In this document: positions 1 to 62,488 of the stretch, one piece after another | How positions within the stretch are numbered: the first letter of the stretch is position 1 | Layout: each line of letters starts with the position of its first letter | The notes under the pieces: model-generated | The model's database searches: none | Seen by the model: the letters and a program-made list of their open reading frames with translations, nothing else | What the model was told of the DNA's origin: nothing | Program-made: the position numbers and the translations under genes | DNA from: Patescibacteria group bacterium | GTDB taxonomy: Bacteria; Patescibacteriota; Microgenomatia; Daviesbacterales; UBA10151 | Length of the DNA: 64,000 bases | Reading direction: 5' to 3' | Assembly (NCBI GenBank): GCA_943356485.1 | Contig: CALRFD010000001.1 | Coordinates: forward strand, 137,716 to 201,715

Positions 1-1556
1 ATGCCGTGGAAGAACATATTTTTAAATGGAATTTGATCGGTAAAATGCAGCGAGAGCATAATCATCCGGGCAATCCAAAGGTATTTAATCTCTCCGGCCG
101 AGATTTCAAAATCCCAGGGGAAATATTTCTCAAATTCTACAGTATTTTCAGGCCAACCTAGTGTGGCCATTGGCCAAAGTCCTGATGAAAACCAGGTATC
201 GAGTAGTTGCTCGTCTTGCACCCAATCCTGCTTCCCACAGCTAGAGCAGTTCTCGGTCGGTTTATTTTGGGAAATTATCACGCCGCGGGAGCTTTTATTT
301 GCCACCTGGTGAGTAGGATTGCAAGATAAGCAGTACCATACCGGAATCTGGTATCCCCACCATAGCGGACGGGAGATGCACCAATCGTGAATATTCTTAA
401 TCCAGTCGGAGATAATTTTCTGATAATTTTTCGGGGCAAAGCTAACCTCGCCAATTCGTTTTAGAGCCTTTTGCGCCAAAGGCTGCATACTCACAAACCA
501 TTCTTCGGAGATAATGGGTTCAACCACTGTCTTACATCTTTCGCAAACTGGTACAGTGTGAGTGTATTCTTCTTCTTTAACCAAAATCCCTTTTTCTCTA
601 AGTTCAGGAAGCATCGCTTCTCTTGCCTCCGCCACTTTCATTCCAGCATACTTGCCGGCAATCTCGGTGAGTCGACCGGTTTTATCTATAACATGAATGA
701 TCGGAAGATTGTGTCTTTTGCCGATTTCGTAATCTACGAAAGAATGACCAGGGGTAACTTTAATCACTCCGGTGCCGAATTTAGGATCAATAGCTTCATC
801 GCCGACTAGCTTCATTTTTCGCATTCCAGTTAACGTTTCGATCTCAAATTCTTTGCCAATATCATTTTTATACCGTTTATCGTTTGGATTAACTGCCATG
901 GCGGTGTCGCCAAATTTAGTTTCTGGTCTGGCTGTAGCTAAAGTGAAAGGGCCGTATTTTAGATAATACAGTTTTTCTTTTCGCTCCTCGTATTCAACCT
1001 CCACATCTTCGATGGCAGTAGCATCTTTGGGGCACCATTGCACAATGTAGGCGCCTTTATAAATTAGATCTTGTTCCCAAAAAGTTTTGAATTCCGTCAG
1101 TACTGCTTTGGCAACTTTGGGATCTAAGGTAAAAACCTCCCTAGACCAGTCAGCAGATAAGCCCATTGTTCTCCAGGTAGCTGAAACTGAGTTGTATGAT
1201 TCTTCTTTAAATTTCCAGGCTCTTTTTAGCCACTCTTCGCGTCCCAGCTTATACTTGGAAGTGCCTTCTTTTTCCAGCAGTTTATTTAACGTGCCTTCGA
1301 ATTGGATTCCGGCATGGTCGACTCCAGGGAGTAGTAAGACATTGAAACCCTGCATTCCCTTAAAACGGGCGATCGCATCCAGTATTGAGTGTTGCATCGC
1401 GTGACCCAAATGCAGCGCCCCGGTCACATTTGGCGGAGGCATTAGTAATGAATAAGGTTTTTTGGAGTCACCAGGGGTTGCTTTAAAATAGTTTTCATCT
1501 TCCCAGAATTTGTACCACTTATTTTCAACTTCTTGTTGGTTATATACCTTGTCCAT
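1..1556 (-). CDS. valS: Valine--tRNA ligase, N-terminal ~518 aa. The start codon is at 1554-1556 and the C-terminus lies beyond the window start.
   Basis: Manual reverse-complement translation gives MDKVYNQQEVENKWYKFWEDENYF...PPNVTGALHLGHAMQHSILDAIARFKGMQG (class I HIGH motif) ...YIVQWCPKDATAIEDVEVEY...TKFGDTAMAVNP, typical of ValRS. Not in the ORF track because it is open-ended. The plus-strand track ORFs 471..1404 are antisense to it. Confidence 0.85.
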   Translation of the reverse strand, partial: MDKVYNQQEVENKWYKFWEDENYFKATPGDSKKPYSLLMPPPNVTGALHLGHAMQHSILDAIARFKGMQGFNVLLLPGVDHAGIQFEGTLNKLLEKEGTSKYKLGREEWLKRAWKFKEESYNSVSATWRTMGLSADWSREVFTLDPKVAKAVLTEFKTFWEQDLIYKGAYIVQWCPKDATAIEDVEVEYEERKEKLYYLKYGPFTLATARPETKFGDTAMAVNPNDKRYKNDIGKEFEIETLTGMRKMKLVGDEAIDPKFGTGVIKVTPGHSFVDYEIGKRHNLPIIHVIDKTGRLTEIAGKYAGMKVAEAREAMLPELREKGILVKEEEYTHTVPVCERCKTVVEPIISEEWFVSMQPLAQKALKRIGEVSFAPKNYQKIISDWIKNIHDWCISRPLWWGYQIPVWYCLSCNPTHQVANKSSRGVIISQNKPTENCSSCGKQDWVQDEQLLDTWFSSGLWPMATLGWPENTVEFEKYFPWDFEISAGEIKYLWIARMIMLSLHFTDQIPFKNMFFHG

Positions 1557-1575
1557 GAGCTTAAGTATATTCAAA

Positions 1576-2739
1576 TTAGTTAGATAGAGCAAGGTTTGGC
1601 TCTGCCTGTAGTTTTAACGGATCAATGGGTTTTTGGAAAAATCCTCTTGAGGCAATCATGGCGGCGTTGTCGGTACAAAGTTCTGGTGGCGGTAGGTGTA
1701 ATTTAACTTTTAACCCTGCCTCGCCGGCAGGCAGGTTTTCACTTTGAATTTTTAACTTGCGAACCAGGAACTGGTTCGCTGCGACGCCACCTGCTATCAT
1801 AATATGCTCAACCTTGTATTTTTGTGCTGCTGCAATAGTCTTTTTAACTAACACGTCAACGATCGCCTGTTCGATTCCGGCTGCCAAATCGCATTTCACC
1901 TCCGAGGAGTCAAAGCCCACCTCGGAGGTGGAGAGTAAATTTGCTACAGCAGTTTTTAACCCGGAAAAAGAAAAATCAAAATCTCTTGAGTTAATCATTG
2001 GACGGGGAAGGTTGAACCTCAAGGCGTCGCCTTGCGAGGCTAATTTAGATATTTCCGGCCCGCCAGGATAAGGCAAACCTAGCAGCCTGGCACATTTATC
2101 AAAACACTCACCTGCTGCATCATCGCGGGTACCACCAAGATATTCATAATTTTGCTCGTCTTTAAATAAAACTAAATCAGTATGACCACCGGAAACCAGC
2201 AGGCCGATGCAGGGAAAGTTAGGTAAGTGACTAGTCGCTAGAGTCAAGAGACTAGGCGTTTTTTTTCTTGACCCTTGACCCTTGACCCTTGACCCTGTCT
2301 CAATCCAATTTGCCCAGAAATGTCCGAGTAAATGATTTACCGGAATTAGTGGCTTATTCCAGGTTAGCGCCAGAGTCTTGGCTGTTTCAACTCCAACTAG
2401 AAGCGACCCGATAAGTCCCGGCCCATAAGTTACTGCAATAGCGTCAATTTTAGAAGCGTAAAGGGGAAAGCGTAAAGCCTGCCTGCCGGCAAGGCAGGGG
2501 GAAAGTTCAGGGAAAGCTTGCTCCAAAGCTTCATTTATGACTGGAATAATGCTTTTGATTTGCTCCCGGGCTGCCTGTTCCGGAATGATCCCGCCGTATT
2601 TAGCCTGCATCTGGGCAGATGAGGCGATAACATTGGATAAAATATGTACCTGCCTGCCGGTAGGCAGGTACGATCCTCGCTTTTCCAGCACTGCCGCTGC
2701 AGTTTCATCACAACTGGTTTCGATGCCTAAAATTATCAT
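1576..2739 (-). CDS. tsaD: tRNA N6-adenosine threonylcarbamoyltransferase TsaD (Kae1/YgjD family). Carries three short in-frame insertions.
   Basis: MIILGIETSCDETAAAVL, LVSGGHTDLV, DDAAGECFDKCARLLGLPYPGGPEISKLA and FSFSGLKTAV match the TsaD core. Extra segments relative to E. coli TsaD coincide with palindromic/SSR DNA (see findings). Confidence 0.9.
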   Translation of the reverse strand: MIILGIETSCDETAAAVLEKRGSYLPTGRQVHILSNVIASSAQMQAKYGGIIPEQAAREQIKSIIPVINEALEQAFPELSPCLAGRQALRFPLYASKIDAIAVTYGPGLIGSLLVGVETAKTLALTWNKPLIPVNHLLGHFWANWIETGSRVKGQGSRKKTPSLLTLATSHLPNFPCIGLLVSGGHTDLVLFKDEQNYEYLGGTRDDAAGECFDKCARLLGLPYPGGPEISKLASQGDALRFNLPRPMINSRDFDFSFSGLKTAVANLLSTSEVGFDSSEVKCDLAAGIEQAIVDVLVKKTIAAAQKYKVEHIMIAGGVAANQFLVRKLKIQSENLPAGEAGLKVKLHLPPPELCTDNAAMIASRGFFQKPIDPLKLQAEPNLALSN

Positions 2740-2850
2740 GTTAATATTCTACCAAATCTAATTGCCAAATATTATTAGTTAATATTGCATTTCCAGTGTA
2801 AATAAGGCGAGGATTGATTAATTAAAGAAAATAGTGTATCCTATAACAAT

Positions 2851-4152
2851 ATGAAACTTGAACAATTAAAGCATTTAATGGAAAGATTTAATCAAGAACC
2901 AGATTTTAGGGAGGCGGTTCGATCTCATAATCCTCATCCCGGGCTTTGGCAAAGGCTTTTGAATCCACCATTAATAGTACCCAGCTATAAAGCAAATTTT
3001 ACTTTAGATCCTATCCAAGCACAAATGCATGGTTTAGAAAAGGATTTTCAGATTGAAGCAGGATCCATAACGGAATTTCCTTTGAGTTCTGCATTGGCTT
3101 TATCAAAATTACCATTCTCTGATGTTAATCGATTAAGGGAAAACGATTTTGGAGTTTGGCCTTCCCTCAGTGAGCCTGACAGAGACCTTTTACGTATAAT
3201 GAATCCGGACTTGGATGGACACTCAATAGATTTTATAATGGGGGGCGTTCATCCTAAGTCTGTGCCTCATATTGAAGATATTGAGTCAAGACAATGGGGC
3301 GCTTTATGGTTTGATCCCCGGCATTTAGCATCTTCTGATACTGCTACTCCTGAGACTAACTTAATTCCAAATATATTTGAAGTGTTATCGGCAGTAGATT
3401 CCTTCCGCGCTCAACAAGGCAAGGATGGGAATCTGTCTCTAAGCTCAAGTAATGAGTGGGTGTTAACTAGCTCTAGGGTACAAGTAGATCTTAAAAAGGA
3501 ATATCGTCAATGGTTAAAAGATAGAGGGTGGTTGGCAGAGTTTTTTCATTCTGCTATTTTAGAAAGATATGTGCCTAATGGGAGTGAAATAAATAATATT
3601 ATTGCTAAAGAAGAAGCCGGAGGTTTCGAGCATAAGAAATCCAGACCTTTGAGGACAAGACTGAATGATGGAAGTAATGTAACGATATTTGAAGATCATG
3701 TTCTGGTTCAAAGAAGAGGAGAAACATTTTATGAGCGTATTTCTGATGATTACATGAGCATTAATACTAAGAAAAATTCTTGGAGTTTGAGAATGGGCAC
3801 ATTGGAGATACAGGATTATACTGACCATACGAGACACTCTTTTAATTTTGATGAGGAGATACTAGATCCGTTAAGGCGATTATTAGGTAGCCATGTAGCA
3901 AAAAGCCTATTTACTACTACACAAGGCATAAATTTATGGGTATGCTTTAGATTAGGTATTAGAGAAGGACTATCAGTTGGAATGTTTGTTCCTAGTACGG
4001 ATGCTATTCCACTTAATGAACATATTTCTATTTCTTTGTTGGATGGAGCTTTTAATGATTTGAAACTTATGGCACCAGCACTTAATCATGTTAGGAAGTA
4101 TGTGCCTCCAGCAATATATCGAGATCAGGATGCACGCAGATTATTGGATTAA
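2851..4152 (+). CDS. Hypothetical protein (433 aa), no recognisable domain.
   Basis: Long ORF with its own AT-rich upstream region containing a GTGTAT box. No motif recognised. Confidence 0.5.
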   Translation: MKLEQLKHLMERFNQEPDFREAVRSHNPHPGLWQRLLNPPLIVPSYKANFTLDPIQAQMHGLEKDFQIEAGSITEFPLSSALALSKLPFSDVNRLRENDFGVWPSLSEPDRDLLRIMNPDLDGHSIDFIMGGVHPKSVPHIEDIESRQWGALWFDPRHLASSDTATPETNLIPNIFEVLSAVDSFRAQQGKDGNLSLSSSNEWVLTSSRVQVDLKKEYRQWLKDRGWLAEFFHSAILERYVPNGSEINNIIAKEEAGGFEHKKSRPLRTRLNDGSNVTIFEDHVLVQRRGETFYERISDDYMSINTKKNSWSLRMGTLEIQDYTDHTRHSFNFDEEILDPLRRLLGSHVAKSLFTTTQGINLWVCFRLGIREGLSVGMFVPSTDAIPLNEHISISLLDGAFNDLKLMAPALNHVRKYVPPAIYRDQDARRLLD

Positions 4153-8206: not shown

Positions 8207-9973
8207 ATGAATAGAGAGTCACCGGAAGGATCCTTTTTAGACAAAATAAACAGAGCAGATTTAAAGAAAGTTATTACTCCAACAACCCCCTTTACCCATC
8301 TTACCACTGAGGTTTATTTGCCAGAGGCTGGACTTTGGGGTAGCGGCGGATTGGGAATTTTAAATGGGGATACAGCAGGGATTGTCAGGAGGCTTGGATT
8401 TTCATACAGGCTATTGACTCTGGCTTACGCCGAGCGCACTTCACAAGAATTAGACGGGTTTCACCAAAGAATCAATCATCAGGCAGTTGCTCCTGAGAGT
8501 CGATTGGTAATAAGAGGCAGTAGTAATATCGGCGCTAATCATGATGAGATAGATCTGGGTGTTCTTGGTTCTAGTGATTATCCGGTTGTTGGATTATATG
8601 AAAATGGTTTGAAAAGTGCCTATTGGGGCAGTAGAGATAGTGACCATAGGTTATATCAGATGGCTGTTTTGGGTTTTGGGGGATATCAAGTTCTCCATCG
8701 GGAAGGAGTTGAACCATCATTTATTAGGTTGGATGAAGCCTCCTCCTCATTGTTTGCTTTAGCTAGACTGGATGGCTATATAAAAAACATACAGGCGCGT
8801 GGTATAGAAATTACCCCGGTAATATTTAACTTTATTTTAAAAGGAGCTAGAAAATCAGTTGGGTATACTAATCACACATTAGTTCCGGCCTCAGTTTCGA
8901 CTTTTGACCAGCGTCAGGTAGAAAGTTATATTTTCCCGAATTTGCAAAGCGATCTAATAAAGGATTGGCTAATAGATATGATGAACCAAACAGGCCGGCT
9001 GGACACCAGTGTTTTGACCTCTACTTTGGCAGGGAAATATAATGGTGTGAGCCAGATGCATGCGGCAATAGCCAGCGGAAGGTTTTACCGCGTTGATGGT
9101 ACACCGGTTAATTTTTCTGCCATCACCAATGGTGTTGATATGCAAAGGTGGACTTATAAAGACCTCTACGATCTTTATAGAGATGGAATTATAGATTGCT
9201 ATGAGTTGCCGGAAGTAGGCTTTGCAGGAAAAATAGAAAATTTGCCGGTTGAAAGACTATATCAAATTAAACAAGAAGCCAAGCAAGAATTGCTGGATTT
9301 TTTGAAAGGGAGAGCAAACCAGTATGAGCAAGCGATTGATATCCCGGGTAACGCAACTGTTGTTTGTTGGGGGAAAAGGATGGCAGATTATAAAAGGCCG
9401 GAATTACTTTTGGAAGATAATGACCGACTAAAGCAGATATTAGTTGAACAGAATATGCACGTACTTATTACCGGTAAGGCGCATGAAGAAGATCATAAGA
9501 TGAGAGGTTTACTACATGATATATTAACCAGGATCAATCAGGATGAAGTACTAAAACAAAGGATGCATTTTGTAGTCGATTATGATACTGCGCTGGCTGA
9601 AAAGTTGGTTGCAGGGGTTGATATCTGGCTGAATGTGCCAGAAGTAGGTAGGGAGGCTTGCGGAACATCTATCTGGAAGGCTTTGGCAAATCTTTCCACA
9701 ATAGTCGCGACAGAAGATGGTGGAATAGCAGATATTAAACCTGCGGTCTATCTGCAGGTGCAAGGTGATAATAGATATGAAGAGGTAAAGTCAATGTATC
9801 AGCAGCTGGAAAATGCCGGCAGAATTACCAGAAACATTCAAAGCTGGGGTAGTCAGGTGAAAAGCCAACTTAGCGCATACTTACCGATTATTGCCGGTGG
9901 GAGAATGATGCAGGATTATTTAAACTTTGCCTTTCCTAGAAAGGCTTTAGCTCCAGACTCATATGCATATTGA
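8207..9973 (+). CDS. Alpha-glucan (glycogen/maltodextrin) phosphorylase, GT35 family, short form.
   Basis: EAGLWGSGGLGILNGD matches the E.GLGNGGLGRLA motif, YTNHTLVPAS matches YTNHT(V/L)LPEALE, and EACGTSIWKALAN matches the PLP-lysine motif EASGTSNMKFALNG. Start moved to the in-frame ATG at 8207; the track ORF 8045 would overlap thpR. Confidence 0.8.
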   Translation: MNRESPEGSFLDKINRADLKKVITPTTPFTHLTTEVYLPEAGLWGSGGLGILNGDTAGIVRRLGFSYRLLTLAYAERTSQELDGFHQRINHQAVAPESRLVIRGSSNIGANHDEIDLGVLGSSDYPVVGLYENGLKSAYWGSRDSDHRLYQMAVLGFGGYQVLHREGVEPSFIRLDEASSSLFALARLDGYIKNIQARGIEITPVIFNFILKGARKSVGYTNHTLVPASVSTFDQRQVESYIFPNLQSDLIKDWLIDMMNQTGRLDTSVLTSTLAGKYNGVSQMHAAIASGRFYRVDGTPVNFSAITNGVDMQRWTYKDLYDLYRDGIIDCYELPEVGFAGKIENLPVERLYQIKQEAKQELLDFLKGRANQYEQAIDIPGNATVVCWGKRMADYKRPELLLEDNDRLKQILVEQNMHVLITGKAHEEDHKMRGLLHDILTRINQDEVLKQRMHFVVDYDTALAEKLVAGVDIWLNVPEVGREACGTSIWKALANLSTIVATEDGGIADIKPAVYLQVQGDNRYEEVKSMYQQLENAGRITRNIQSWGSQVKSQLSAYLPIIAGGRMMQDYLNFAFPRKALAPDSYAY

Positions 9974-10538
9974 ACAAGAAGGAAATACCTTAGCAGGACA
10001 AGTTTGGGAGAAACATGAACTAACACAAAAAGCCTCTTTGGCCAAAGAGGCTTTAGTCAGGTTACTCTCAGAAGAAGTAGTAGATGGTTTAAGGCATTAC
10101 TTTGGAGCTCCACAGCCAGAGTCAGGAGTCTTTTTTGATAAGCAGTTTGGAAATGTTGGTATAACAATTAATCCAGGATTTAAAGTTCCCCAGTCAGAGC
10201 CGGAACTATTTTTTGGCAGACAGTTTAGCCTAGGAAATAATTCAGATTCTCACTGGGAATTTTGCCGTTCTGGCGGATTCCGCCAGGTTATATTTGAAAC
10301 AAACCAGAATACTGCTTTGGGTGACCGGAGTTTAAGGAGGTTTATGATTAGAGGTTCTCATCCTGAAAATAGATCCGGTGAGTGGGAAGTTGAATTTATA
10401 ATCGGAGGATCGGGAATTATGAAAAGAGAAAATAGAGAAGCATTAATTTTTGAGCAGGCAGACGCTTTACTAGTTTTAACTATTTTAGGTGGAATTAAGG
10501 ATCAGCTTGAAAGATTAAAGTTAAATAAAAGAAGATAA
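9963..10538 (+). CDS. Hypothetical protein (191 aa).
   Basis: ORF overlapping the phosphorylase stop by 11 bp. No motif recognised. Confidence 0.4.
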   Translation: MHIEQEGNTLAGQVWEKHELTQKASLAKEALVRLLSEEVVDGLRHYFGAPQPESGVFFDKQFGNVGITINPGFKVPQSEPELFFGRQFSLGNNSDSHWEFCRSGGFRQVIFETNQNTALGDRSLRRFMIRGSHPENRSGEWEVEFIIGGSGIMKRENREALIFEQADALLVLTILGGIKDQLERLKLNKRR

Positions 10539-12032: not shown

Positions 12033-14373
<2,341 letters not shown>

Positions 14374-18777: not shown

Positions 18778-18840
18778 AGATGGTTCAAAAAAGGAGAGGT
18801 GCGAAGCTAATCCAAATGGAAGGTGGCAGCTTTAAGAGAA

Positions 18841-23171: not shown

Positions 23172-23177
23172 GTCTCT

Positions 23178-23243
23178 TCCCACCCTTCGGGTGGTTTAGC
23201 CCACCTTGCCGGTGAGGCAGACTTCGCACCTATTCTTTTTTGG
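23178..23243 (+). repeat. Copy A of a ~66-bp two-hairpin + U-tract element, about 90% identical to 59471-59536.
   Basis: CCACCCttcgGGTGG (UUCG tetraloop hairpin), TTGCCggtgaGGCAG hairpin, then CTTTTTTGG. Confidence 0.7.
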
Positions 23244-23436
23244 GAAATAGGATAGAAAACTATCTCACCTTGGGGGTCTTAGACTCTTAAGGGAGAGCCG
23301 ATTCGGCTGAGCTCATGGCCTAAGCCCTCAGGCTCAGACTCAAGTGAGGTGTAGAATACCTGCCGGCAGGCAAGATACAATCATGCGAACTGATTGTATC
23401 AAGCACGGAATAACATTTTGAAATAAGCTCTAAATT

Positions 23437-29750: not shown

Positions 29751-30611
29751 ATGGAAAAAGCAATTTTAAAAACTCTGATCTATGCAAATATCTTTGCCTA
29801 TCCCTTAAAAGGGTATGAAGTTTACAAATGGCTGGTTAAAAAGCCAACAACCCTTCTGCAGGTAGAGGCAGGTTTAAATAGACTGATAAAAAAAAGAAAG
29901 GTGGAATTTTTTAAAGGATATTATTTTTTGTCAAAGGAAAAATCGATAGTTCTAAAAAGAATCAGACGGGAAAAATATTCAAAAACTTTATATAAAAAAG
30001 CAATATTGTTTGCCCAAATTTTGAAAATAATTCCCTGGATAAAGTTGGTGGGAATCTCCGGTGGATTGGCGCTAAACGATGCAGATAAAAAAGATGATGT
30101 TGATTTATTTATCATAACTGCGGGCAGTAGACTTTGGTTATCCAGGCTTTTGGCAATTTTAATACTTGATCTTTTTAGGATCAGGAGAAAGGCAGGAATG
30201 AGTCGGAAAGATACTAAAGGTAAAGTTTGTTTAAATACTGTTATTGATGAAGGCTTTTTAGAACAAAAATTTAAAGATCTGTTTATTGCCCATGAAGTTT
30301 TACAGATGAAAGTTATCTGGCAAAGAGAGGGGATTTATTCCAGGTATTTAAATGATAATGATTGGGCGTTTAATTTTTTGCCAAACTGGACTTCCAGGAT
30401 AAAATATTTAAAAGCCAGACTTGATGAAGGATCTAATTTTTTTAATATTGTGGAAAGATTAGCCAAAAAATTACAAATAAAAATTATGCAAAAGCCAAAT
30501 GGATTAGAAAGAATAGAAGAGGGCGGTTTATACTTTTATCCAAATGACTACCGGGCGCAAATATTAAAGTTATATAATCAAAGAACTAAAAGATTTTCTA
30601 GCACCACTTGA
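29751..30611 (+). CDS. Hypothetical protein with a possible minimal nucleotidyltransferase (Pol-beta-like) motif.
   Basis: LVGISGGLALNDADKKDDVDLFIIT matches the GS-x(9-13)-DxD pattern. Confidence 0.35.
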   Translation: MEKAILKTLIYANIFAYPLKGYEVYKWLVKKPTTLLQVEAGLNRLIKKRKVEFFKGYYFLSKEKSIVLKRIRREKYSKTLYKKAILFAQILKIIPWIKLVGISGGLALNDADKKDDVDLFIITAGSRLWLSRLLAILILDLFRIRRKAGMSRKDTKGKVCLNTVIDEGFLEQKFKDLFIAHEVLQMKVIWQREGIYSRYLNDNDWAFNFLPNWTSRIKYLKARLDEGSNFFNIVERLAKKLQIKIMQKPNGLERIEEGGLYFYPNDYRAQILKLYNQRTKRFSSTT

Positions 30612-30637
30612 CAAGGTTTGCTAATGTTTGGTATAAC
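30608..30637 (+). promoter_or_regulatory. Sigma70-like promoter TTGACA-18-TATAAC upstream of groES.
   Basis: TTGACA at 30608-30613 and TATAAC at 30632-30637. No CIRCE inverted repeat seen. Confidence 0.45.
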
Positions 30638-30670
30638 TCATCACACGAACCTGCCTCAGTCTTTTTTCAT

Positions 30671-30994
30671 ATGTCAAAAGTCGATAAAAAAATAGTTTCT
30701 AAGGTTAGTATTAAGCCCCTGATGGGCTATGTATTAGTTGATCCCTCCGGTGCAGATACTAAAACTGCCTCCGGGATATATCTTCCGGAATCAGCTCAAG
30801 AAAAACCAGCCCAGGGAATAGTTCTATCAGTTGGGGAAGAGATGGTATTTGATAATGGCAAAACGCTAAAATCTCCGGTTAGGGCTGGCGATAAAGTGGT
30901 CTATAAAAAATGGGGCGGGGATGAGATAAAAGTTGATGGGAAAGAGTTAAAGTTAGTAAAATTCGACGACTTAATGGCAATTTTGGAGAACTAA
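30671..30994 (+). CDS. groES: Co-chaperonin GroES (Cpn10).
   Basis: IKPLMGYVLVDP...ASGIYLPESAQEKPAQGIVLSVGEE...AGDKVVYKKWGG. The track ORF begins at TTG 30608; the first ATG is at 30671. Confidence 0.9.
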   Translation: MSKVDKKIVSKVSIKPLMGYVLVDPSGADTKTASGIYLPESAQEKPAQGIVLSVGEEMVFDNGKTLKSPVRAGDKVVYKKWGGDEIKVDGKELKLVKFDDLMAILEN

Positions 30995-35000: not shown

Positions 35001-35816
35001 ATGAAAAAAACACTGACCTGGATTTTAATTTTGCTAAGTATTGTTGTTTTAATAATCAGGTTTAGCTCCTCTGCAGAGGAGCTGCTGTTTGGGATAAAAC
35101 AAAAAAGTGGAATTTCAGTTTTGTCTACTCCTGAAGATGCAACAGTATCTTTAGATGGGAAAGATGTCGGTAAAACGCCCTATGAGGATAAAAATTTAGC
35201 TGTTAAGGAATATTCTATTAAAATTGAAAAAGACAAATCAGTTTGGCAAGCCAAACTAAACCTGATTGCCGGTACAGTGGCTGTAATAAACAGGGATCTC
35301 TCCCCGGATGAAGCCTCATCAGCAGGCGAGATCTTAACTTTGAAAAAAGGTACGGGGATAACTGTTGTTTCCAGCCCTGCAGATGTAAATGTAGAGATAG
35401 ATGGTAAGTCTCTTGGTAAAACACCCAATACTTTTGATATCAAGCCAGGTGAGCATACAATTATATTAAGCCATATTAACTTTCAAAATAGAAGCATAAA
35501 AGCAAAATTACCGGAAGGCTTTAATTTAACTGTCTCCTCTGATCTAGCCATTTCTGAAGCTGATTTAACCACCATTTCGACTCCGGTTATTACTCAAACC
35601 CCGGAAGTTATAGTCAAAAATACTCCCACAGGATTCTTAAGGGTTAGAGATAAAGCCTCGCTCAGTGGTAAGGAAATTGCCCAGGTAAAGGTGGGTGAGG
35701 CATTAATCCTCCTGGAAGAGCTAGGATCCTGGGATCGGGTCAGATTGTCAAATAATACAGAAGGTTTTGTTTCAAGCAGCTATGTTGAAAAGAAAAATAC
35801 TCAAGCCCCTAAATAG
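35001..35816 (+). CDS. Secreted protein with two PEGA domains and a C-terminal SH3b domain.
   Basis: VLSTPEDATVSLDGKDVGKTPYE and VVSSPADVNVEIDGKSLGKTP (PEGA motifs); GFLRVRDKASLSGKEIAQVKVGEALILLEELGSWDRVRL (SH3b). Confidence 0.6.
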   Translation: MKKTLTWILILLSIVVLIIRFSSSAEELLFGIKQKSGISVLSTPEDATVSLDGKDVGKTPYEDKNLAVKEYSIKIEKDKSVWQAKLNLIAGTVAVINRDLSPDEASSAGEILTLKKGTGITVVSSPADVNVEIDGKSLGKTPNTFDIKPGEHTIILSHINFQNRSIKAKLPEGFNLTVSSDLAISEADLTTISTPVITQTPEVIVKNTPTGFLRVRDKASLSGKEIAQVKVGEALILLEELGSWDRVRLSNNTEGFVSSSYVEKKNTQAPK

Positions 35817-45221: not shown

Positions 45222-46578
45222 AGAGAGAGAAAGTTCAGTCAGAGGAGTAAATGAAAATTTGTCGGATTTTTATAAATCCTGGGGAGCATTTGATATCTTT
45301 GAGAAAACGCTGGATCAGCTACCTCCGGACTGGTTAAAAATCTTAAACATTGCCAGAAATCTACTAGACGGGAAAAGAATTCCTGGAGTCAACCTTCCTT
45401 CAACTGTCATGGCTCTGGTAGAGAAGGATCAGGAAATAGTTTTTGAAAAAAGATATATGACCAGAAAATGGCAGCAAAAATCCATCCTACCAGCCACCAG
45501 CATTGATGTTAAAAATCTGGAAGATTTATCTCAATTGCCTAAAGTATTGCCAGCCCACCTCCTGCTGCAGGGCGAAGCGCCGGAAATCTTTGCTTATCGG
45601 GCTCTGACTCATTCTCTACCAATAGCCGAGATGCAAAAACCAAGAGCAATAACAGAAGAAAAATCAGAAACCTTGATGGAACTTGTACCAAAGGCAAGAG
45701 AAAGAACTTCTATGCGGCAAAGAGTCTATGCTTTAATGGATGTTTCTCTCTCAATGAAATCTAATTACAAATTAATCTTTTCCAAAGCTGTCATGTTGGC
45801 TTATTTGGCAAAAGCCCACGAGGAAGGATCAGAGGTTTATTTCCGAGCTTTTGCCGGCAGTGTCGGGGATCTGGTAGCCTGCATCTCTCCTGAGGATTTT
45901 CCTGCTTTGGCAAAGAGGATCTTAGGATACAGGGTCTATCATGGTACTGATATTAGGTATGCTCTCACAACTGCAGTTGAAGATATTTCTAGGATGGAGA
46001 GATTAACTGACAGTAGAAGAGCTAAAACTGAGGTTTTGCTAATATCAGATGGTGAAAGCTATACCCCTATACCCCTGATGCCTAAAAATATAGCTTTGCA
46101 TACCCTGCATTTAGTCGGAGGAGGCGAGGAGTTTATATTAGATAAAGAGTTAAGGCAAATGAGTAACACTTACACCAGGATAGATACAGGAAATTTAATG
46201 CTGCCAAGTATTTCAGAGGAGGCTTGGTTTATGTTTGAGGAGATTGAGAGGCTGGAAGATCAAACAAAAGGTCTGACAGATTCAGAGATGAAATACGATA
46301 GAAGACTGCAGCAAAGAGTTGAAGCTATAAGAAAGCATACAGAAGCATATAGAAAAATCGATTCCAGCGAGAAAGTTAGGGAAAATGCCGGCAGAGCGCA
46401 AAAACTGCATGATAAAGTTTCCTTAGAAAAAGCAGAGGAAAGATTAAAGAAAAAATTAGAATTAATAAGGTATTTTATAAAAAAACTTATGCAAAAAATT
46501 AAGTCTTTCCGATTGCCTAAATTTGACAGAAAGAAAGTATTAGCCGGGAGTTTATTTGATTTTAGAATAAAGGACTAG
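45214..46578 (+). CDS. von Willebrand factor A (vWA) domain protein, ViaA-like partner of the MoxR ATPase.
   Basis: MIDAS motif in RVYALMDVSLSM (DxSxS), then a Thr and LLISDGES. Overlaps the MoxR gene by 8 nt (coupled). Confidence 0.65.
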   Translation: MAKERESSVRGVNENLSDFYKSWGAFDIFEKTLDQLPPDWLKILNIARNLLDGKRIPGVNLPSTVMALVEKDQEIVFEKRYMTRKWQQKSILPATSIDVKNLEDLSQLPKVLPAHLLLQGEAPEIFAYRALTHSLPIAEMQKPRAITEEKSETLMELVPKARERTSMRQRVYALMDVSLSMKSNYKLIFSKAVMLAYLAKAHEEGSEVYFRAFAGSVGDLVACISPEDFPALAKRILGYRVYHGTDIRYALTTAVEDISRMERLTDSRRAKTEVLLISDGESYTPIPLMPKNIALHTLHLVGGGEEFILDKELRQMSNTYTRIDTGNLMLPSISEEAWFMFEEIERLEDQTKGLTDSEMKYDRRLQQRVEAIRKHTEAYRKIDSSEKVRENAGRAQKLHDKVSLEKAEERLKKKLELIRYFIKKLMQKIKSFRLPKFDRKKVLAGSLFDFRIKD

Positions 46579-47521
46579 GATTACCTATTACCTTAACATT
46601 ATTTGTAGTTTGATTTGCTACTTCTTCCAAAGTTATTCCTTTTAACTCTGCAATCAGCCTTGCAATTTCTAAAACTGCAGATGGTTCGTTTCTCTGCCCC
46701 CGTTTGGATTGGAGAGGTAGGAAGGGGCAATCAGTCTCCAGGCAAATTTTATCCAAAGGCAGAATTTTAACAGCCTCTCTTAAGTATTCATTTTTAGGAT
46801 AGGTTAGAGTTCCTCCAAATGACACTAAAACATTAGACATTTTGAGTATTTGGTGAGTGGTTCTGGTCAAACCACTGTAGCAGTGGAAAATAGCCGGGTA
46901 ATCACCTATTAAATTTAACGTTTCATCCCAGGCTTCGCAGTTTTCTGGATTTTTAGAGCGGTCATCCCGGCAGTGAACTATTAAAGGTAAGTCTAGCTTT
47001 TTAGCCAGATCAATCTGGGCTTGAAAAAGTCTTCTTTGTAGCTCTTTTTCGTGATTGTGAGAAAGTTTACCGGTTCGACTGAGCTCACCGTCGAAGTCCT
47101 GAACTTGTTTCAGGGTGGCAATCTCTGTTTCTCTAAAGTAATAATCCAGCCCGCATTCCCCAACAGCGATAACCTTTTTCGGATTTTCTCTATAAATTTT
47201 TTCCAGTTGAGTAATGTCTTCGTTGACATTTTTGCAACGATCGTCGTATTTTTGTCCAGGTAAGGAATAATTTATAGCCTCATGCGGGTGAATACCGATT
47301 GTTGAATAAACCTTCAATCCTGGAATGTCTGACAGTTTACCGGTTCGACTGAGCTCACCGCCGAAGTCCTGAGCTTGTCGAAGGGCTTTTTTCGATGATT
47401 CAATATCTACCCCAACATTTATAATGGTAGTTACACTGGCATCAAGAGATCGTTTTATAACTTCATCAAAATCCGGTTTAAAACTGTCCCAATATAAATG
47501 GGCATGGGTGTCTATCAGCAT
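46562..47521 (-). CDS. tatD: TatD-family metal-dependent deoxyribonuclease. Carries two in-frame ~48-bp repeat insertions.
   Basis: MLIDTHAHLYW, GIHPHEA, AVGECGLDYY, LIVHCRDD and the C-terminal DCPFLPL. Duplicated inserts encode QDFGGELSRTGKLS and QDFDGELSRTGKLS. Confidence 0.85.
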   Translation of the reverse strand: MLIDTHAHLYWDSFKPDFDEVIKRSLDASVTTIINVGVDIESSKKALRQAQDFGGELSRTGKLSDIPGLKVYSTIGIHPHEAINYSLPGQKYDDRCKNVNEDITQLEKIYRENPKKVIAVGECGLDYYFRETEIATLKQVQDFDGELSRTGKLSHNHEKELQRRLFQAQIDLAKKLDLPLIVHCRDDRSKNPENCEAWDETLNLIGDYPAIFHCYSGLTRTTHQILKMSNVLVSFGGTLTYPKNEYLREAVKILPLDKICLETDCPFLPLQSKRGQRNEPSAVLEIARLIAELKGITLEEVANQTTNNVKVIGNPSPLF

Positions 47522-59470: not shown

Positions 59471-59536
59471 TTCCACCCTTCGGGTGGATTAGCCCGCCTT
59501 GCCGTCGAGGCAGGCTTTGCACCTTTCCTTTTTTGA
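59471..59536 (+). repeat. Copy B of the ~66-bp two-hairpin + U-tract element, followed by a CCACCTCC...GGATTAGGTAG box at 59542-59573.
   Basis: CCACCCttcgGGTGG, TTGCCgtcgaGGCAG, CCTTTTTTG. About 90% identical to 23178-23243. Confidence 0.7.
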
Positions 59537-59581
59537 AATTATTCCACCTCCAAAGGGGATTAGGTAGGCACAGTTGACGTC

Positions 59582-59616: not shown

Positions 59617-60132
59617 ATGGATGCTAAAGTTGCATTATTTGAAAACCAACGAATTCGTAGAGTTTGGCATAACAACGAGTGGTGGCTTTCTGTGGTTGAT
59701 GTTTGTAAAGCATTGACTGGTAGTCCTGATTCCGGGTCATATTGGAGAAAATTAAAACAAAGATTAAAGGAAGAAGGAAGTGAAGTCGTGACATTTTGTC
59801 ACGGGTTGAAGTTAGAAGCACCTGACGGAAAATTACGTGAAACTGATTGTGCTAATATAGGGAGTTTTGATTTAAAAGTTGATGAATATAAAGATTTAAA
59901 AGGTTTGGATAAAGAAAATTTACGTGATCATATGAATGATATTGAATTAATTTTGACAATGTTAGCAGAAGCAACTACAACTAAAATTCATAAAGGCAGA
60001 GATTCACAAGGTTTCCCAAAGCTTAAAAAAGATGCCAAAGATGGTGGTGGTGTTGCAGGAAGGACACGTAAAGATATTGAGCAAGTAAGTGGTAAAAAAG
60101 TTATAAGTACTAAAAATTATTTACTAAAATAA
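59617..60132 (+). CDS. Bro-N (phage antirepressor N-terminal) domain protein.
   Basis: LFENQRIRRVWHNNEWWLSVVDVCKALTGSPDSGSYWRKLKQRL matches the Bro-N pattern. Confidence 0.6.
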   Translation: MDAKVALFENQRIRRVWHNNEWWLSVVDVCKALTGSPDSGSYWRKLKQRLKEEGSEVVTFCHGLKLEAPDGKLRETDCANIGSFDLKVDEYKDLKGLDKENLRDHMNDIELILTMLAEATTTKIHKGRDSQGFPKLKKDAKDGGGVAGRTRKDIEQVSGKKVISTKNYLLK

Positions 60133-60201
60133 ATTCATTCAAGAACAATTAGACGAAGTATTCATACCTAATTATTATCCCAAGTAGATTATAATCAACT
60201 C

Positions 60202-60843
60202 ATGAGTTTTCCACAGTATTTGTATAGGTTTTTTAATCAAAAAGATCATAGAGATCAGTTTATTCAAGGATTAATTCGATTTGGGAGATTAGAGGCATAT
60301 AAAGAAATCGAAGATGAACAAAGGAAAGATAAAGATGAGGGAGATCCAAGAGGAAAATATAAAACAGATAAACAAATTTATCTCAAAATAAGCAATCAAA
60401 CAGGAAAGGTAGTAGAGCATGGAATTAAGTTAGGAGATATTAATATATCAGGATATAGTCCAAATAATTTCTTTATTGTTTCGGCAACAGACGAGAAAGT
60501 TAATGTAGAAAAGATATCAGAAAAATTTGGTAAGTATGTAGTAAAAATTAACAATCCTCAGAAATTGCTTGATTTATTAAATAAAAACCGTAAATTCCCT
60601 TGGAGCGTAGGCAAGATTGTATTAGAGCGAGTGAAATATGATAAGGATAATTATTTAGAGATAGAAGAAAGTAATCCTCATTTACCATTTGGCTACTATT
60701 ATGCTCAAAAACCCCAAATGTTTTCTGATGAAATGGAGTGGAGATTTGTGTTAATAGGAAGTGGTATTGATGAGCTGGAAGATAAATTTGTAGTTATAGA
60801 GATAGGTTCTATAGAGAATATAATTACCCGTATAGATTTATGA
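60202..60843 (+). CDS. Hypothetical protein (213 aa).
   Basis: ORF only. Confidence 0.4.
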   Translation: MSFPQYLYRFFNQKDHRDQFIQGLIRFGRLEAYKEIEDEQRKDKDEGDPRGKYKTDKQIYLKISNQTGKVVEHGIKLGDINISGYSPNNFFIVSATDEKVNVEKISEKFGKYVVKINNPQKLLDLLNKNRKFPWSVGKIVLERVKYDKDNYLEIEESNPHLPFGYYYAQKPQMFSDEMEWRFVLIGSGIDELEDKFVVIEIGSIENIITRIDL

Positions 60844-60869
60844 TTAGACACACATAGAAATAGACGTCT

Positions 60870-61220
60870 CTATCTTTTTTCCCCAGATATTGTAGCTACT
60901 CTCTCCATAAGCCTCTGATTCTCTTCCAGTTGTGTCTTATAATCCTTTAAAAGGACATTTCTTTCTTCAAGTCTTTGTGAATAATCTTGATAGGCAGCGT
61001 TATTTATTTGAAATAAACTAACTATCATTTGTACAAAGGCTATAAAAACTACTACAACTACACCGCCCGTAATCCAACTAATATCTCTAAATTTATCACT
61101 TAATCTTTTTTCTGAATACTCACTAGACTGTCTTACGCTCTCAGTGATAACTGCCAATTCTTGTATAGTAAATTGATTAGTCTGTTCTTGAGGAGTATTT
61201 TGTCTTCTTGGTGGTGTCAT
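60870..61220 (-). CDS. Hypothetical membrane/coiled-coil protein (116 aa).
   Basis: Transmembrane helix GGVVVVVFIAFVQMIVSLF, then a coiled coil. Confidence 0.35.
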   Translation of the reverse strand: MTPPRRQNTPQEQTNQFTIQELAVITESVRQSSEYSEKRLSDKFRDISWITGGVVVVVFIAFVQMIVSLFQINNAAYQDYSQRLEERNVLLKDYKTQLEENQRLMERVATISGEKR

Positions 61221-61441
61221 TTGTAAACTCCTATAATTTCATTTATTCCACCAGGTTGTTCTACAACTGAAAAATCCTTACCCATAAATAGGGTAAAATC
61301 AATACCGGCAAAAGATACTCCTCGCGTAAATCTCACGCCCGGCCCAAATTCTACTCCACCCACCCGTATTCTAACTAAAGGCTCAACGCCGCCATCAAAA
61401 TTGATTTTAAATAGTTGATTGAAGTTCTTTTTTACTGGCAT
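61217..61441 (-). CDS. Hypothetical small protein (74 aa).
   Basis: ORF overlapping the downstream gene by 4 nt. Confidence 0.3.
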   Translation of the reverse strand: MPVKKNFNQLFKINFDGGVEPLVRIRVGGVEFGPGVRFTRGVSFAGIDFTLFMGKDFSVVEQPGGINEIIGVYK

Positions 61442-61498
61442 ATACGAATACTTAACCTGAAACTAATTCTAACAGATATATAATTAATCTTATAGCTA

Positions 61499-61597
61499 GA
61501 ATAATTCCTTTATTTGAACTTTTAAGACTTTAGCTATTTTTTCAATAGTTTCTAGAGAAGAGGACTTTCTTCCTTGCTCAATTTGGCCTAATTGCAT
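61499..61597 (-). pseudogene. Truncated XRE-family HTH repressor fragment (32 codons: MQLGQIEQGRKSSSLETIEKIAKVLKVQIKELF).
   Basis: Matches only the C-terminal half of a Cro/C1-type HTH (...IERGKRNPSLETLLKIAKALGV..ELF). There is an in-frame stop immediately upstream of the Met. Confidence 0.35.
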
Positions 61598-61601
61598 TTG
61601 A

Positions 61602-61859
61602 TTATTTGTACTTCTTTACGGTAATTTTATATGGATTAACTGTTCCTGTTTTGCCTGTGTATGGATTGTAATTTCCTTTTGTTGAAAAGTTATCAATTTT
61701 TGTTTTATTTGGAGAGGATTTAAAATGAGGGGCAACATATGTGCCTTTTTTCGTAACGTATCCTTTGACGCGAGTAGCAGCGCTGACAGAAGATACGTTA
61801 ATAACGAAGATTGAAACAGTTAATAAAAAAGCTACAAAAATACTAAATATTTTTCTCAC
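61602..61859 (-). CDS. Small secreted protein (85 aa) with a signal peptide.
   Basis: MRKIFSIFVAFLLTVSIFVINVSSVSA, then a K/Y/T/G-rich mature region. Confidence 0.35.
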   Translation of the reverse strand: MRKIFSIFVAFLLTVSIFVINVSSVSAATRVKGYVTKKGTYVAPHFKSSPNKTKIDNFSTKGNYNPYTGKTGTVNPYKITVKKYK

Positions 61860-61926
61860 GAGCCAATTGTATCTAATATGATTAATTTAAACAATCTCGC
61901 ATTTCAAGTGGTATAATGTCGGTATT

Positions 61927-62250
61927 ATGACACACAAGAATATATCATTGCGCTGTATTACTTATCAAGAAAAAGATGGCTCTTTTACAGGGGTTTGTCT
62001 TGATTTGGACATCGTGGAAGAGGGACATATTAGCTTAGAAGAGGCAGTTCTAAGCATTAACGATGCTATTTTATCTCATTTTCAAGCTGCTGCGAAGTTG
62101 GATTTTCCCAAAGAGTTGGTCACTAGATTAGCGCCAAAAGAGTATTGGAACAAACTAAAAGAAGTTACCCAAGAAAACCCATCTCACAAAAAGTTTGAGC
62201 CGTTCCAATTTTTTACCAGACAATTTACTCCTGGTTTGATGTATGCCTAA
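61927..62250 (+). CDS. hicB: HicB-family antitoxin.
   Basis: LRCITYQEKDGSFTGVCLDLDIVEEGHISLEEAVLSINDAILSHFQAA fits the HicB N-terminal fold pattern. Overlaps the downstream HicA gene by 8 nt. Confidence 0.55.
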   Translation: MTHKNISLRCITYQEKDGSFTGVCLDLDIVEEGHISLEEAVLSINDAILSHFQAAAKLDFPKELVTRLAPKEYWNKLKEVTQENPSHKKFEPFQFFTRQFTPGLMYA

Positions 62251-62488
62251 ATATAAACCTCTTAAATATCGTGATGTGGTCACTATTCTAAAAAATCTAG
62301 GTTTTATTCAAGAAAGCGGTACTGGTTCTTCACACCAAACATGGGTTCTAAAAAGAAACGGCATGAGTTTTGCTGTAACGGTTGCTTTTCATGGAAATAA
62401 TCAGGAATTTAGGCCGGGTACTTTAGGATCAATGATTCGCCAAAGCGGATTTACAAAAGAAGAATTTTATAAAGCTCTCAAAAACTAA
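62243..62488 (+). CDS. hicA: HicA-family toxin (mRNA interferase).
   Basis: KYRDVVTILKNLGFIQESGTGSSHQTWVLKRNGMSFAVTVAFHGNNQEFRPGTLGSMIRQSGFTKEEF matches the HicA/YcfA pattern (..GSH..F......TVP.H...L..GTL..I...G). Confidence 0.65.
   Translation: MPKYKPLKYRDVVTILKNLGFIQESGTGSSHQTWVLKRNGMSFAVTVAFHGNNQEFRPGTLGSMIRQSGFTKEEFYKALKN

Follow-up and report, generated by a model that had tools for sequence, protein, structure and literature searches.

A 20-nt palindrome carried in frame by housekeeping genes of a Patescibacteria genome, and probably a micro-palindromic insertion element

Why would unrelated housekeeping genes of one bacterium carry the same short, GC-rich palindrome within their reading frames? 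The question is raised by a 64,000-nt stretch of a Patescibacteria group bacterium (contig CALRFD010000001.1, positions 137,716 to 201,715; hereafter the window), in which tsaD and a PfkB-family kinase gene, whose homologues bear the names Candidatus Daviesbacteria, Microgenomates and Patescibacteria, both contain such inserts. An earlier note on this DNA had proposed a selfish element resembling the palindromic elements of Rickettsia. Our analysis suggests, with a probability that we put at roughly 0.7, that each palindrome is a copy of a selfish insertion element, micro-palindromic, sequence-specific and non-autonomous.

The unit is a 20-nt perfect palindrome, CCTGCCTGCCGGCAGGCAGG, with the core (CCTG)2CC·GG(CAGG)2. 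It consists of two 10-nt arms with no internal segment, and a single strand of it folds into a GC stem of 7-8 bp that closes a loop centred on CCGG. At 80% GC it stands out from a host genome of ~39% GC. Scanning the window for CTGCCGGCAGG at ≤1 mismatch returned eight strand-matches at four loci, compared with an expectation of 0.35, and none of 100 shuffles reached eight. These four loci are the ones listed in the earlier note (2478-2498, 2649-2668, 13631-13652 and 23358-23372), and the peptides given there (YLPTGRQV, LSPCLAGRQALRFPLY and GLPAGRQG) are all present. The count itself was too low: fuzzy search, reaching beyond the one-mismatch scan, added a third copy in tsaD and two diverged intergenic copies, which brings the window total to seven (three in tsaD, one in the kinase gene and three intergenic; Table 1). 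Copies share no flank similarity with one another. Scans of the window against Rfam and for tRNA genes returned no matches.

Table 1. Positions in the window of the palindrome copies, their host genes and the hairpins and repeats around them.
Feature	Position	Strand	Remarks
tsaD, 387 aa	1576..2739	-	PF00814 and TsaD names among the matches; solved TsaD homologues at E ~1e-69
tsaD site 3 palindrome, CCTGCCTCGCCGGCAGGCAGG	1715..1735	.	21-mer with an internal extra base; peptide LPAGEAG (in NLPAGEAGL)
Other hairpin-type in-frame insert, tsaD mid loop, residues ~148-172	2224..2298	-	(GGGTCAA)n arm, A-run, partial complement
tsaD site 2	2456..2498	.	21-mer at 2478-2498 (one extra T/A) and 22-nt tail at 2456-2477; peptide PCLAGRQALRFPLY
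tsaD site 1 palindrome, CCTGCCTGCCGGTAGGCAGG	2649..2668	.	One mismatch to the 20-mer; peptide YLPTGRQ
PfkB-family kinase (adenosine-kinase-like), 339 aa	13354..14373	-	PF00294; closest solved homologue M. tuberculosis adenosine kinase, E=6e-60
Element X relic arm (third hairpin family)	13595..13605	.	CACCTTCCAGG/CCTGGAAGGTG
Element Y, outer host hairpin	13612..13666	.	Arms CACCTCGGGGG (13612-13622) and CCCCCGAGGTG (13656-13666)
PfkB palindrome, perfect 20-mer CCTGCCTGCCGGCAGGCAGG	13632..13651	.	+21 nt with one G; peptide LPAGRQG
Intergenic host repeat, empty copy without hairpin B	18784..18827	-	GGATTAG^CTTCGCACC
Intergenic host repeat, filled	23180..23245	+	Hairpin A 23180-23194, diverged palindrome (hairpin B) 23200-23221, CTTCGCACC, T-run
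Short intergenic palindrome ACCTGCCGGCAGGCA	23358..23372	.	One CCTG unit per arm; from the core scan
Intergenic host repeat, second filled copy	59473..59537	+	Hairpin A 59473-59487, hairpin B 59493-59514, CTTTGCACC, T-run

A sequencing-adapter or assembly artefact was considered and is ruled out by the in-frame copies, the mutated variants, a second assembly and the occurrence of the palindrome in cultured isolates. The second assembly is an independent ENA contig (L260) with 99.93% identity over window positions 1222-4036. Its two single-nucleotide polymorphisms fall outside the palindromes, and it has all three tsaD copies unaltered, so that these copies are no product of assembly.

All four coding copies add exactly 21 nt, or seven codons, either as the 20-mer with one flanking base or as a 21-mer with an extra base beside the central GCCGGC. 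Because the net gain in genes is always 21 nt, the reading frame is kept. All four are also read in the frame CTG CCT GCC GGC AGG CAG, which encodes L-P-A-G-R-Q, a Pro/Gly-rich hydrophilic peptide. None of the palindrome's reading frames contains a stop codon, and LPAGRQ is encoded by the symmetric frame on both strands, just as the earlier note had pointed out for either orientation; together these properties explain why the palindrome is tolerated in genes.

Comparison with orthologues argues that the coding copies are insertions. In tsaD, the orthologue P0002 reads GGA TGC ATA CAA at site 1 where the query reads GGA TCG T[ACCTGCCTACCGGCAGGCAGG]TA CAT, and AAG TTA at site 3 where the query reads AA[CCTGCCTGCCGGCGAGGCAGG]G TTA, a clean gain of 21 nt in each case. 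Site 1, which sits within a 26-nt palindrome (2646-2671), is absent from 27 of the 28 sequences of our TsaD alignment (A1), its YLPTGRQ being missing in all 27 orthologues, and among 120 TsaD matches only one, P0028, has it. In the same alignment, PAGEAGL of site 3 is missing in nearly all 27 orthologues and site 2 is a hypervariable loop. The 22-nt tail of site 2 shares homology with that of the intergenic host repeat described below (nhmmer against the repeat profile, E=0.017; alignment A3). Solved TsaD homologues have gaps where the palindrome inserts fall. The earlier note's contention that the inserts coincide with extra residues and keep the frame is thereby supported, as is the surface-loop location that it proposed to check: in AlphaFold models the coding copies are predicted to lie in coil or low-confidence surface loops between secondary-structure elements. 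Site 1 (residues 22-29) forms a predicted beta-hairpin turn, with model confidence (pLDDT) <50 at residues 24-26, while sites 2 (residues 79-86) and 3 (residues 335-345) are predicted coil.

The single shared insert deserves separate mention. P0028 has a palindrome at the identical nucleotide position to site 1, with a TsaD that is 74% identical to the query over aligned residues in a pairwise alignment (65% in the database search). For the shared residues in or beside the insert, codons are identical in seven of seven cases, compared with 44% identical codons for shared residues and a third-position identity of 0.42 gene-wide. Such a pattern would not be expected of an ancient insert under protein-coding constraint alone. 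The conservation may reflect recent independent insertion at the same hot spot, conversion by other copies of the palindrome, or selection on the hairpin.

Besides its three palindromes, tsaD carries one other hairpin insert in its mid loop, with the peptide ETGSRVKGQGSRKKTPSLLTLATSHLP; diverged forms occur in P0002, P0005, P0006 and P0008. Its residues 150-170 have pLDDT <50, and it has no alignment to solved TsaD. TsaD orthologues from the Candidate Phyla Radiation (CPR) have further insert peptides that recur at these hot spots (A1 columns ~85-130, 190-225, 330-375 and 440-480), among them SNLYPPSSKHHLPSST, SRLPRPFGARNDK / SAPRNDNF and IPAKAGI / DPDIRRDD, which probably stem from other dispersed repeat families. 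A diverged palindrome (CTTGCCTCGCCGGCAGGCGGG followed by TTTGAC) was also seen in frame at a fourth variable site of another CPR TsaD (L181, 6703-6732).

In the kinase, the earlier note had correctly located a copy and had missed that it is nested: the palindrome occupies the 12-nt loop of an older hairpin, which we call element Y. The orthologue P0130 has the element Y hairpin without the palindrome, its loop in the opposite orientation. The site is empty (IQTKDQ-T) in ~10 of 25 orthologues, others hold unrelated inserts there, and solved PfkB homologues show a gap. In the AlphaFold model, residues 232-254 have pLDDT <50 and lie between strands 225-229 and 259-262. The nested hairpin folds as RNA at -45.1 kcal/mol (z=-3.3). 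We had entertained the idea that the whole PfkB insert is a homologue of the two-hairpin intergenic repeat, and dropped it since orthologue DNA shows the outer hairpin to be a separate, older element.

Elements X and Y are two more hairpin families found in frame in Daviesbacteria genes (13595-13666; L121, L122, L178). Element X, present in the window as a relic arm, has its complete form (CACCTTCCAGG-loop-CCTGGAAGGTG) in P0125 (PfkB) and P0028 (TsaD); its peptide is 'PDSPSRSQGPPGRW' in many orthologues of PfkB and 'SHLPGARAHLEGV' in P0028 TsaD. Element Y has the same loop as element X and arms that are different yet complementary.

Filled and empty sites also occur outside genes. An intergenic host repeat runs in the order hairpin A (CCACCCTTCGGGTGG), palindrome, CTT(C/T)GCACC and T-run. 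Two filled copies, the first of them downstream of a solute-binding-protein gene, are 87% identical over 63 nt, and the copy lacking hairpin B is an empty site within the same genome. In an independent ENA assembly, the contig L261 (equivalent to window positions 59633-62314) breaks ~90 nt downstream of the second filled copy, which is consistent with the repeat being multi-copy in the genome. The short palindrome lies in a 265-nt intergenic region between convergent genes (23172-23436) that is dense in hairpins; the fold of 23255-23400 has -57 kcal/mol (z=-3.8) and includes an arm, CACCTTGGGGG, resembling that of element Y.

The palindrome is by no means confined to this genome. A scan of one genome per GTDB species placed it at at least 120 loci in at least 8 phyla, taxon names being those of the records. 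Among the matches listed, Bacteroidota account for ~37 loci, many classes of Patescibacteria for ~35, Gammaproteobacteria-labelled metagenome-assembled genomes for ~12, Omnitrophota for 9 and Planctomycetota/PVC (Planctomycetes-Verrucomicrobia-Chlamydiae) for 8, with fewer loci each in Delta-type lineages, Thermodesulfovibrionales, Elusimicrobia and Chloroflexi; no record title among those matches names a cyanobacterium. Cultured Bacteroidota are among the carriers, namely Winogradskyella echinorum, Flagellimonas yonaguniensis, Longitalea luteola, Flavivirga sp., Aquiflexum lacus, Agriterribacter humi and Aestuariivivens sediminis. Most carrier loci have 31-48% GC, and a 20-mer of such composition is calculated to occur far less than once in the whole collection. 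Genomes and viral contigs together hold the 20-21-mer at >170 non-redundant sites with unrelated flanks.

Sequence specificity was gauged in the viral data. IMG/VR contains 54 loci with the palindrome, as opposed to 0, 1 and 0 loci for three composition-matched control palindromes with the same GCCGGC centre (~50-fold rarer); the compensated variant (CCCGCC...GGCGGG) was found at one locus and the three-unit version at none. The excess therefore belongs to the exact sequence and not to stable hairpins generally. We also compared the window with 628 kb of control loci from the TsaD metagenome scan (TsaD neighbourhoods of diverse bacteria and five Daviesbacteria-related loci). These hold one true copy, the site 1 insert of P0028, so that the source genome is unusually copy-rich and the possibility of a generic genome-wide k-mer, raised in the earlier note, fails. 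That note had also taken the inserts to be lineage-specific, but the element itself is shared across phyla and phage contigs.

Elsewhere, copies are depleted in coding DNA: some 23% lie in long open frames, compared with a coding density of ~88% in this window, and the LPAGRQ frame is the commonest among them (15 of 29). Coding copies are enriched in 21-mers (10 of 26, against 19 of 98 for 20-mers). In-frame hosts include FtsK, an ATP-dependent DNA ligase, an RmlB-type dehydratase, alanyl-tRNA synthetase (AlaRS) and glycosyltransferases, and for RmlB and AlaRS the palindrome peptide is an insertion relative to solved homologues. Other copies occupy the loops of other GC-rich palindromic repeats (L060, L111, L113, L115) or lie inside further copies of the palindrome (L023, L026, L034, L052), and some are found inside short tandem or direct repeats. 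Inverted repeats of ≥7 nt flank 12% of sites and 3% of controls, direct repeats of ≥7 nt flank 18% and 4%, and a stem arm adjoins the palindrome at 9.2% and 3.5%.

Several unrelated hosts have a CTTTG(C)AC-like sequence directly 3' of the palindrome (window 13652-13660, 23222-23230, 59515-59523 and 2470-2477; L062, L076, L078, L088 and L181), CTTTG being ~3-fold over control. This flank could be a weak target preference or mark an extended subfamily. On five unrelated contigs, the palindrome is found at the D-loop/D-stem junction of tRNA 5' fragments (L018 4020-4090, L047 2113-2160, L037 3617-3680, L105 46-137 and L169 ~490-560). An intact tRNA follows within 300 nt of the fragment in L018, L047 and L037, and L047 duplicates the first 32 nt of tRNA-Lys. 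Insertion into functional tRNA genes was dropped as an account of these sites, four of the five being truncated or duplicated 5' fragments and L105 ending at the edge of its stretch. A phage contig (L157, 2239-2330) encodes a 92-nt tRNA-Met, called by ARAGORN, with the 20-mer (2284-2303) at the position of the variable arm; this tRNA may have gained a long extra arm and still be functional.

Taken together, the contrast between filled and empty sites suggests that the palindrome is mobile. Insertion would occur nearly everywhere, hairpin loops and repeat-rich DNA being somewhat favoured, and selection would then purge coding insertions save in-frame ones in tolerant loops. As only the exact sequence is common and its variants are not, a trans-acting factor probably recognises the dyad-symmetric sequence, and phages are plausible carriers between phyla. 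Most speculatively, a single-stranded hairpin or a blunt self-annealed duplex may enter single-stranded or broken DNA at hairpin loops, which would fit the lack of target-site duplication. Sequence specificity, dyad symmetry, missing duplication and hairpin-loop bias would all point to such a factor combined with entry at hairpins.

Several observations weigh against this reading. Target-site duplications are distributed in length as in the control, save for three sites with 7-nt repeats, and a logo of 346 flanks shows no motif, only the first outward base being biased (A is scarce, at 8%). A Pfam scan found no transposase, integrase, HUH or HNH domain in the 64 open reading frames (ORFs) of the window, and 150 ORFs next to copies in other genomes yielded 153 unrelated housekeeping families and no mobiliser. 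These features fit no known transposition chemistry. We saw no filled/empty polymorphism between strains, the nearest relatives having ~61-71% protein identity; the TsaD metagenome scan gave no strain-level relative closer than 61% identity. Moreover, the genome-scan figures are lower bounds on loci and give no per-genome copy number, and that the inserts are translated is something we infer from frame preservation. The missing mobilising gene in the window and among adjacent ORFs is the reason for regarding the element as non-autonomous, its mover being encoded elsewhere.

The alternative that fares best, though we think it unlikely, makes the palindrome a functional cis-element under selection, such as a homodimer binding site, a GCCGGC restriction-modification or methylation site, or a hairpin acting in transcription or mRNA stability, with coding copies co-opted or tolerated. 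The control palindromes speak for it, because they show that the exact sequence counts beyond fold alone; so do the shared TsaD insert, whose DNA is more conserved than surrounding synonymous sites, and the intergenic copies that lie just downstream of genes in a hairpin and T-run repeat. However, the places that copies occupy are unrelated and non-orthologous (they include the cores of enzymes, fragments of tRNA, other repeats and the palindrome itself), we found no positional rule relative to genes, and most orthologous sites are empty. We know of no regulator common to Patescibacteria, Bacteroidota, Planctomycetota and phages.

Still less probable is a repeated local origin of the palindromes by mutation, with nothing moving, for instance when (CCTG)n/(CAGG)n tracts or quasi-palindromes undergo template switching or slippage. 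The core is indeed built of CCTG/CAGG units and exists in one-unit and two-unit forms, copies are enriched beside hairpin stems and direct repeats, and the inverted loop of the PfkB host hairpin relative to P0130 indicates that hairpin-driven rearrangement occurs here. Yet neither CCTG repeats nor templates are present in the flanks of the >170 sites at which the same 20 bases recur; local flanks are not the source of the inserted sequence, and the three-unit version and the compensated variant are essentially absent.

Very improbable, in our view, is a third alternative in which the hairpins are removed from RNA or bypassed in translation, as with the rRNA intervening sequences of CPR bacteria or the mitochondrial byp elements of Magnusiomyces. 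In its favour are the high stability of the hairpins as RNA (the nested PfkB hairpin has -45 kcal/mol), the phage tRNA-Met in which the palindrome forms an extra arm, and a preprint that reports introns to be widespread in Patescibacteria (doi 10.1101/2025.07.03.662931). Against this, the addition of seven codons in four of four coding copies and the enrichment of 21-mers would be needless if the inserts were excised or bypassed, and stop codons and frameshifts are absent. Finally, the view that the extra residues are ancestral, lineage-specific protein loops with incidental palindromic DNA can draw on the variable loops that many CPR TsaD and PfkB orthologues have at the same positions, but is hardly credible given the same DNA in non-coding DNA, unrelated genes and other phyla, orthologues with different unrelated inserts or none at these positions, and rare GC-rich codons shared without change by lineages in which synonymous sites otherwise approach saturation.

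How does a micro-palindromic insertion element compare with elements already described? Rickettsia palindromic elements (RPEs), reportedly described by Ogata and colleagues in 2000, are ~100-150 bp long, form AT-rich consensus families and are confined to Rickettsia. The palindrome here resembles them as a selfish palindromic repeat found both between genes and in frame in housekeeping genes, with a fold-compatible peptide absent from orthologues, and likewise forms hairpins with stable folds. By contrast, its unit of 20-22 nt (net 21) is a GC-rich perfect palindrome, set apart from RPEs by their described length; its host is a Candidatus Daviesbacteria, it is spread over at least 8 phyla and phage contigs, and it is nested in the loops of other hairpins. 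The Rickettsia-like element of the earlier note thus stands as far as a palindrome tolerated in frame is concerned, and at 20-22 nt falls as an identification: the element works like an RPE yet is not one in length or host.

In size and nesting, the closest known elements appear by analogy to be the small dispersed repeats (SDRs) of Nostoc/Anabaena, with mitochondrial GC clusters also close. SDRs, said to have been described by Elhai and colleagues in 2008, are 21-27 nt long, hairpin-forming and reportedly inferred to be mobile; they are nested in larger conserved host repeats, have no associated gene, and are cyanobacterial, family-specific and mainly non-coding. As described, they resemble the hairpin-forming dispersed repeat of 20-22 nt found here, also in nesting with filled and empty versions (the PfkB hairpin, the intergenic repeat, L060, L111, L113 and L115). 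Unlike SDRs, we are dealing with one sharply defined sequence in many phyla that is repeatedly inserted in frame in enzymes.

Fungal mitochondria provide further examples in the double-hairpin elements (DHEs) of Allomyces and the PstI palindromes of Neurospora. Yeast mitochondrial GC clusters are GC-rich palindromic mini-elements in an AT-rich genome (PMC4478555). GC clusters and DHEs share with our palindrome the spread of GC-rich palindromes through an AT-rich genome, with merging, nesting and reported horizontal exchange, but they reside in organelles, usually measure 30-60 nt or more, and show putative AG/TAG duplications of the target, whereas the present element is a 20-nt unit of a bacterial chromosome without duplication.

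REP (repetitive extragenic palindromic) sequences and REPINs are also short, multi-copy palindromes; they are 20-40 nt, GC-rich and non-autonomous, cause no target-site duplication and depend on RAYT (Y1 HUH) transposases (PMC3116915, PMC3733652). A head of GTAG or CGTC marks REPs, which lie outside genes, are species-specific, frequently occur as inverted doublets and flank a RAYT gene (PMC3116915, PMC3733652). No such trait was seen here: the logo of 346 flanks reveals no conserved GTAG or CGTC tetranucleotide at the palindrome end, and four of the seven window copies and ~23% of those elsewhere lie inside ORFs. Among the 64 window ORFs and the 150 copy-adjacent ORFs elsewhere, no RAYT (Y1 transposase) gene was found. 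[quoted passage not shown] They are alike in being small non-autonomous repeats inside genes that add peptide segments. MITEs measure ~50-500 bp, and the palindrome differs from them in having no internal segment between terminal inverted repeats and no fixed-length target-site duplication. A literature search that covered few subscription-journal papers turned up no account of this palindrome or its LPAGRQ peptide, and none of palindromic elements lying in frame in genes of CPR bacteria.

Most known cases of selfish palindromes tolerated in genes come from Rickettsia, and most of those of very small mobile repeats from cyanobacteria; here one 20-nt sequence combines both traits. Should its mobility be real, the lower size limit of mobile DNA would be set anew, and a sequence-specific insertion machinery would be indicated that should be findable by phylogenetic profiling, with the cultured Bacteroidota carriers usable for testing candidates. 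The palindrome also offers a concrete account, at the level of DNA, of the many odd and variable loops that housekeeping proteins of CPR bacteria show; these loops bear on annotation, alignment and structure prediction. A bolder proposal, which we advance tentatively and at less than even odds, is that the element would be the smallest mobile DNA with sequence specificity so far, nothing more than a 20-nt palindrome. It would spread within and between phyla, possibly by phage, through a widespread dyad-recognising machinery with a preference for hairpin loops, and would be one of several micro-elements continually making CPR surface loops.

Some further features of the window and of other genomes are recorded here in their own right. 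Two other perfect palindromes fall within window ORFs, the 26-nt AAAGCCTCTTTGGCCAAAGAGGCTTT (10029-10054, ORF 9963-10538) and the 20-nt AGCTCCTCTGCAGAGGAGCT (35064-35083) within the ORF of a PEGA/SH3 protein (35001-35816). The TatD DNase (46562-47521) matches a 253-position Pfam profile over residues 3-310, leaving ~55 extra residues, and GroES (30608-30994) has a 34-residue N-terminal extension; both may be more insertions of the same general kind. Finally, a second perfect palindrome with the core CCGCCAGCTGGCGG (e.g., TCCGCCAGCTGGCGGA) was found at five unrelated loci in different lineages, including L012 and L020, and from its sequence may be another cross-phylum micro-palindrome.

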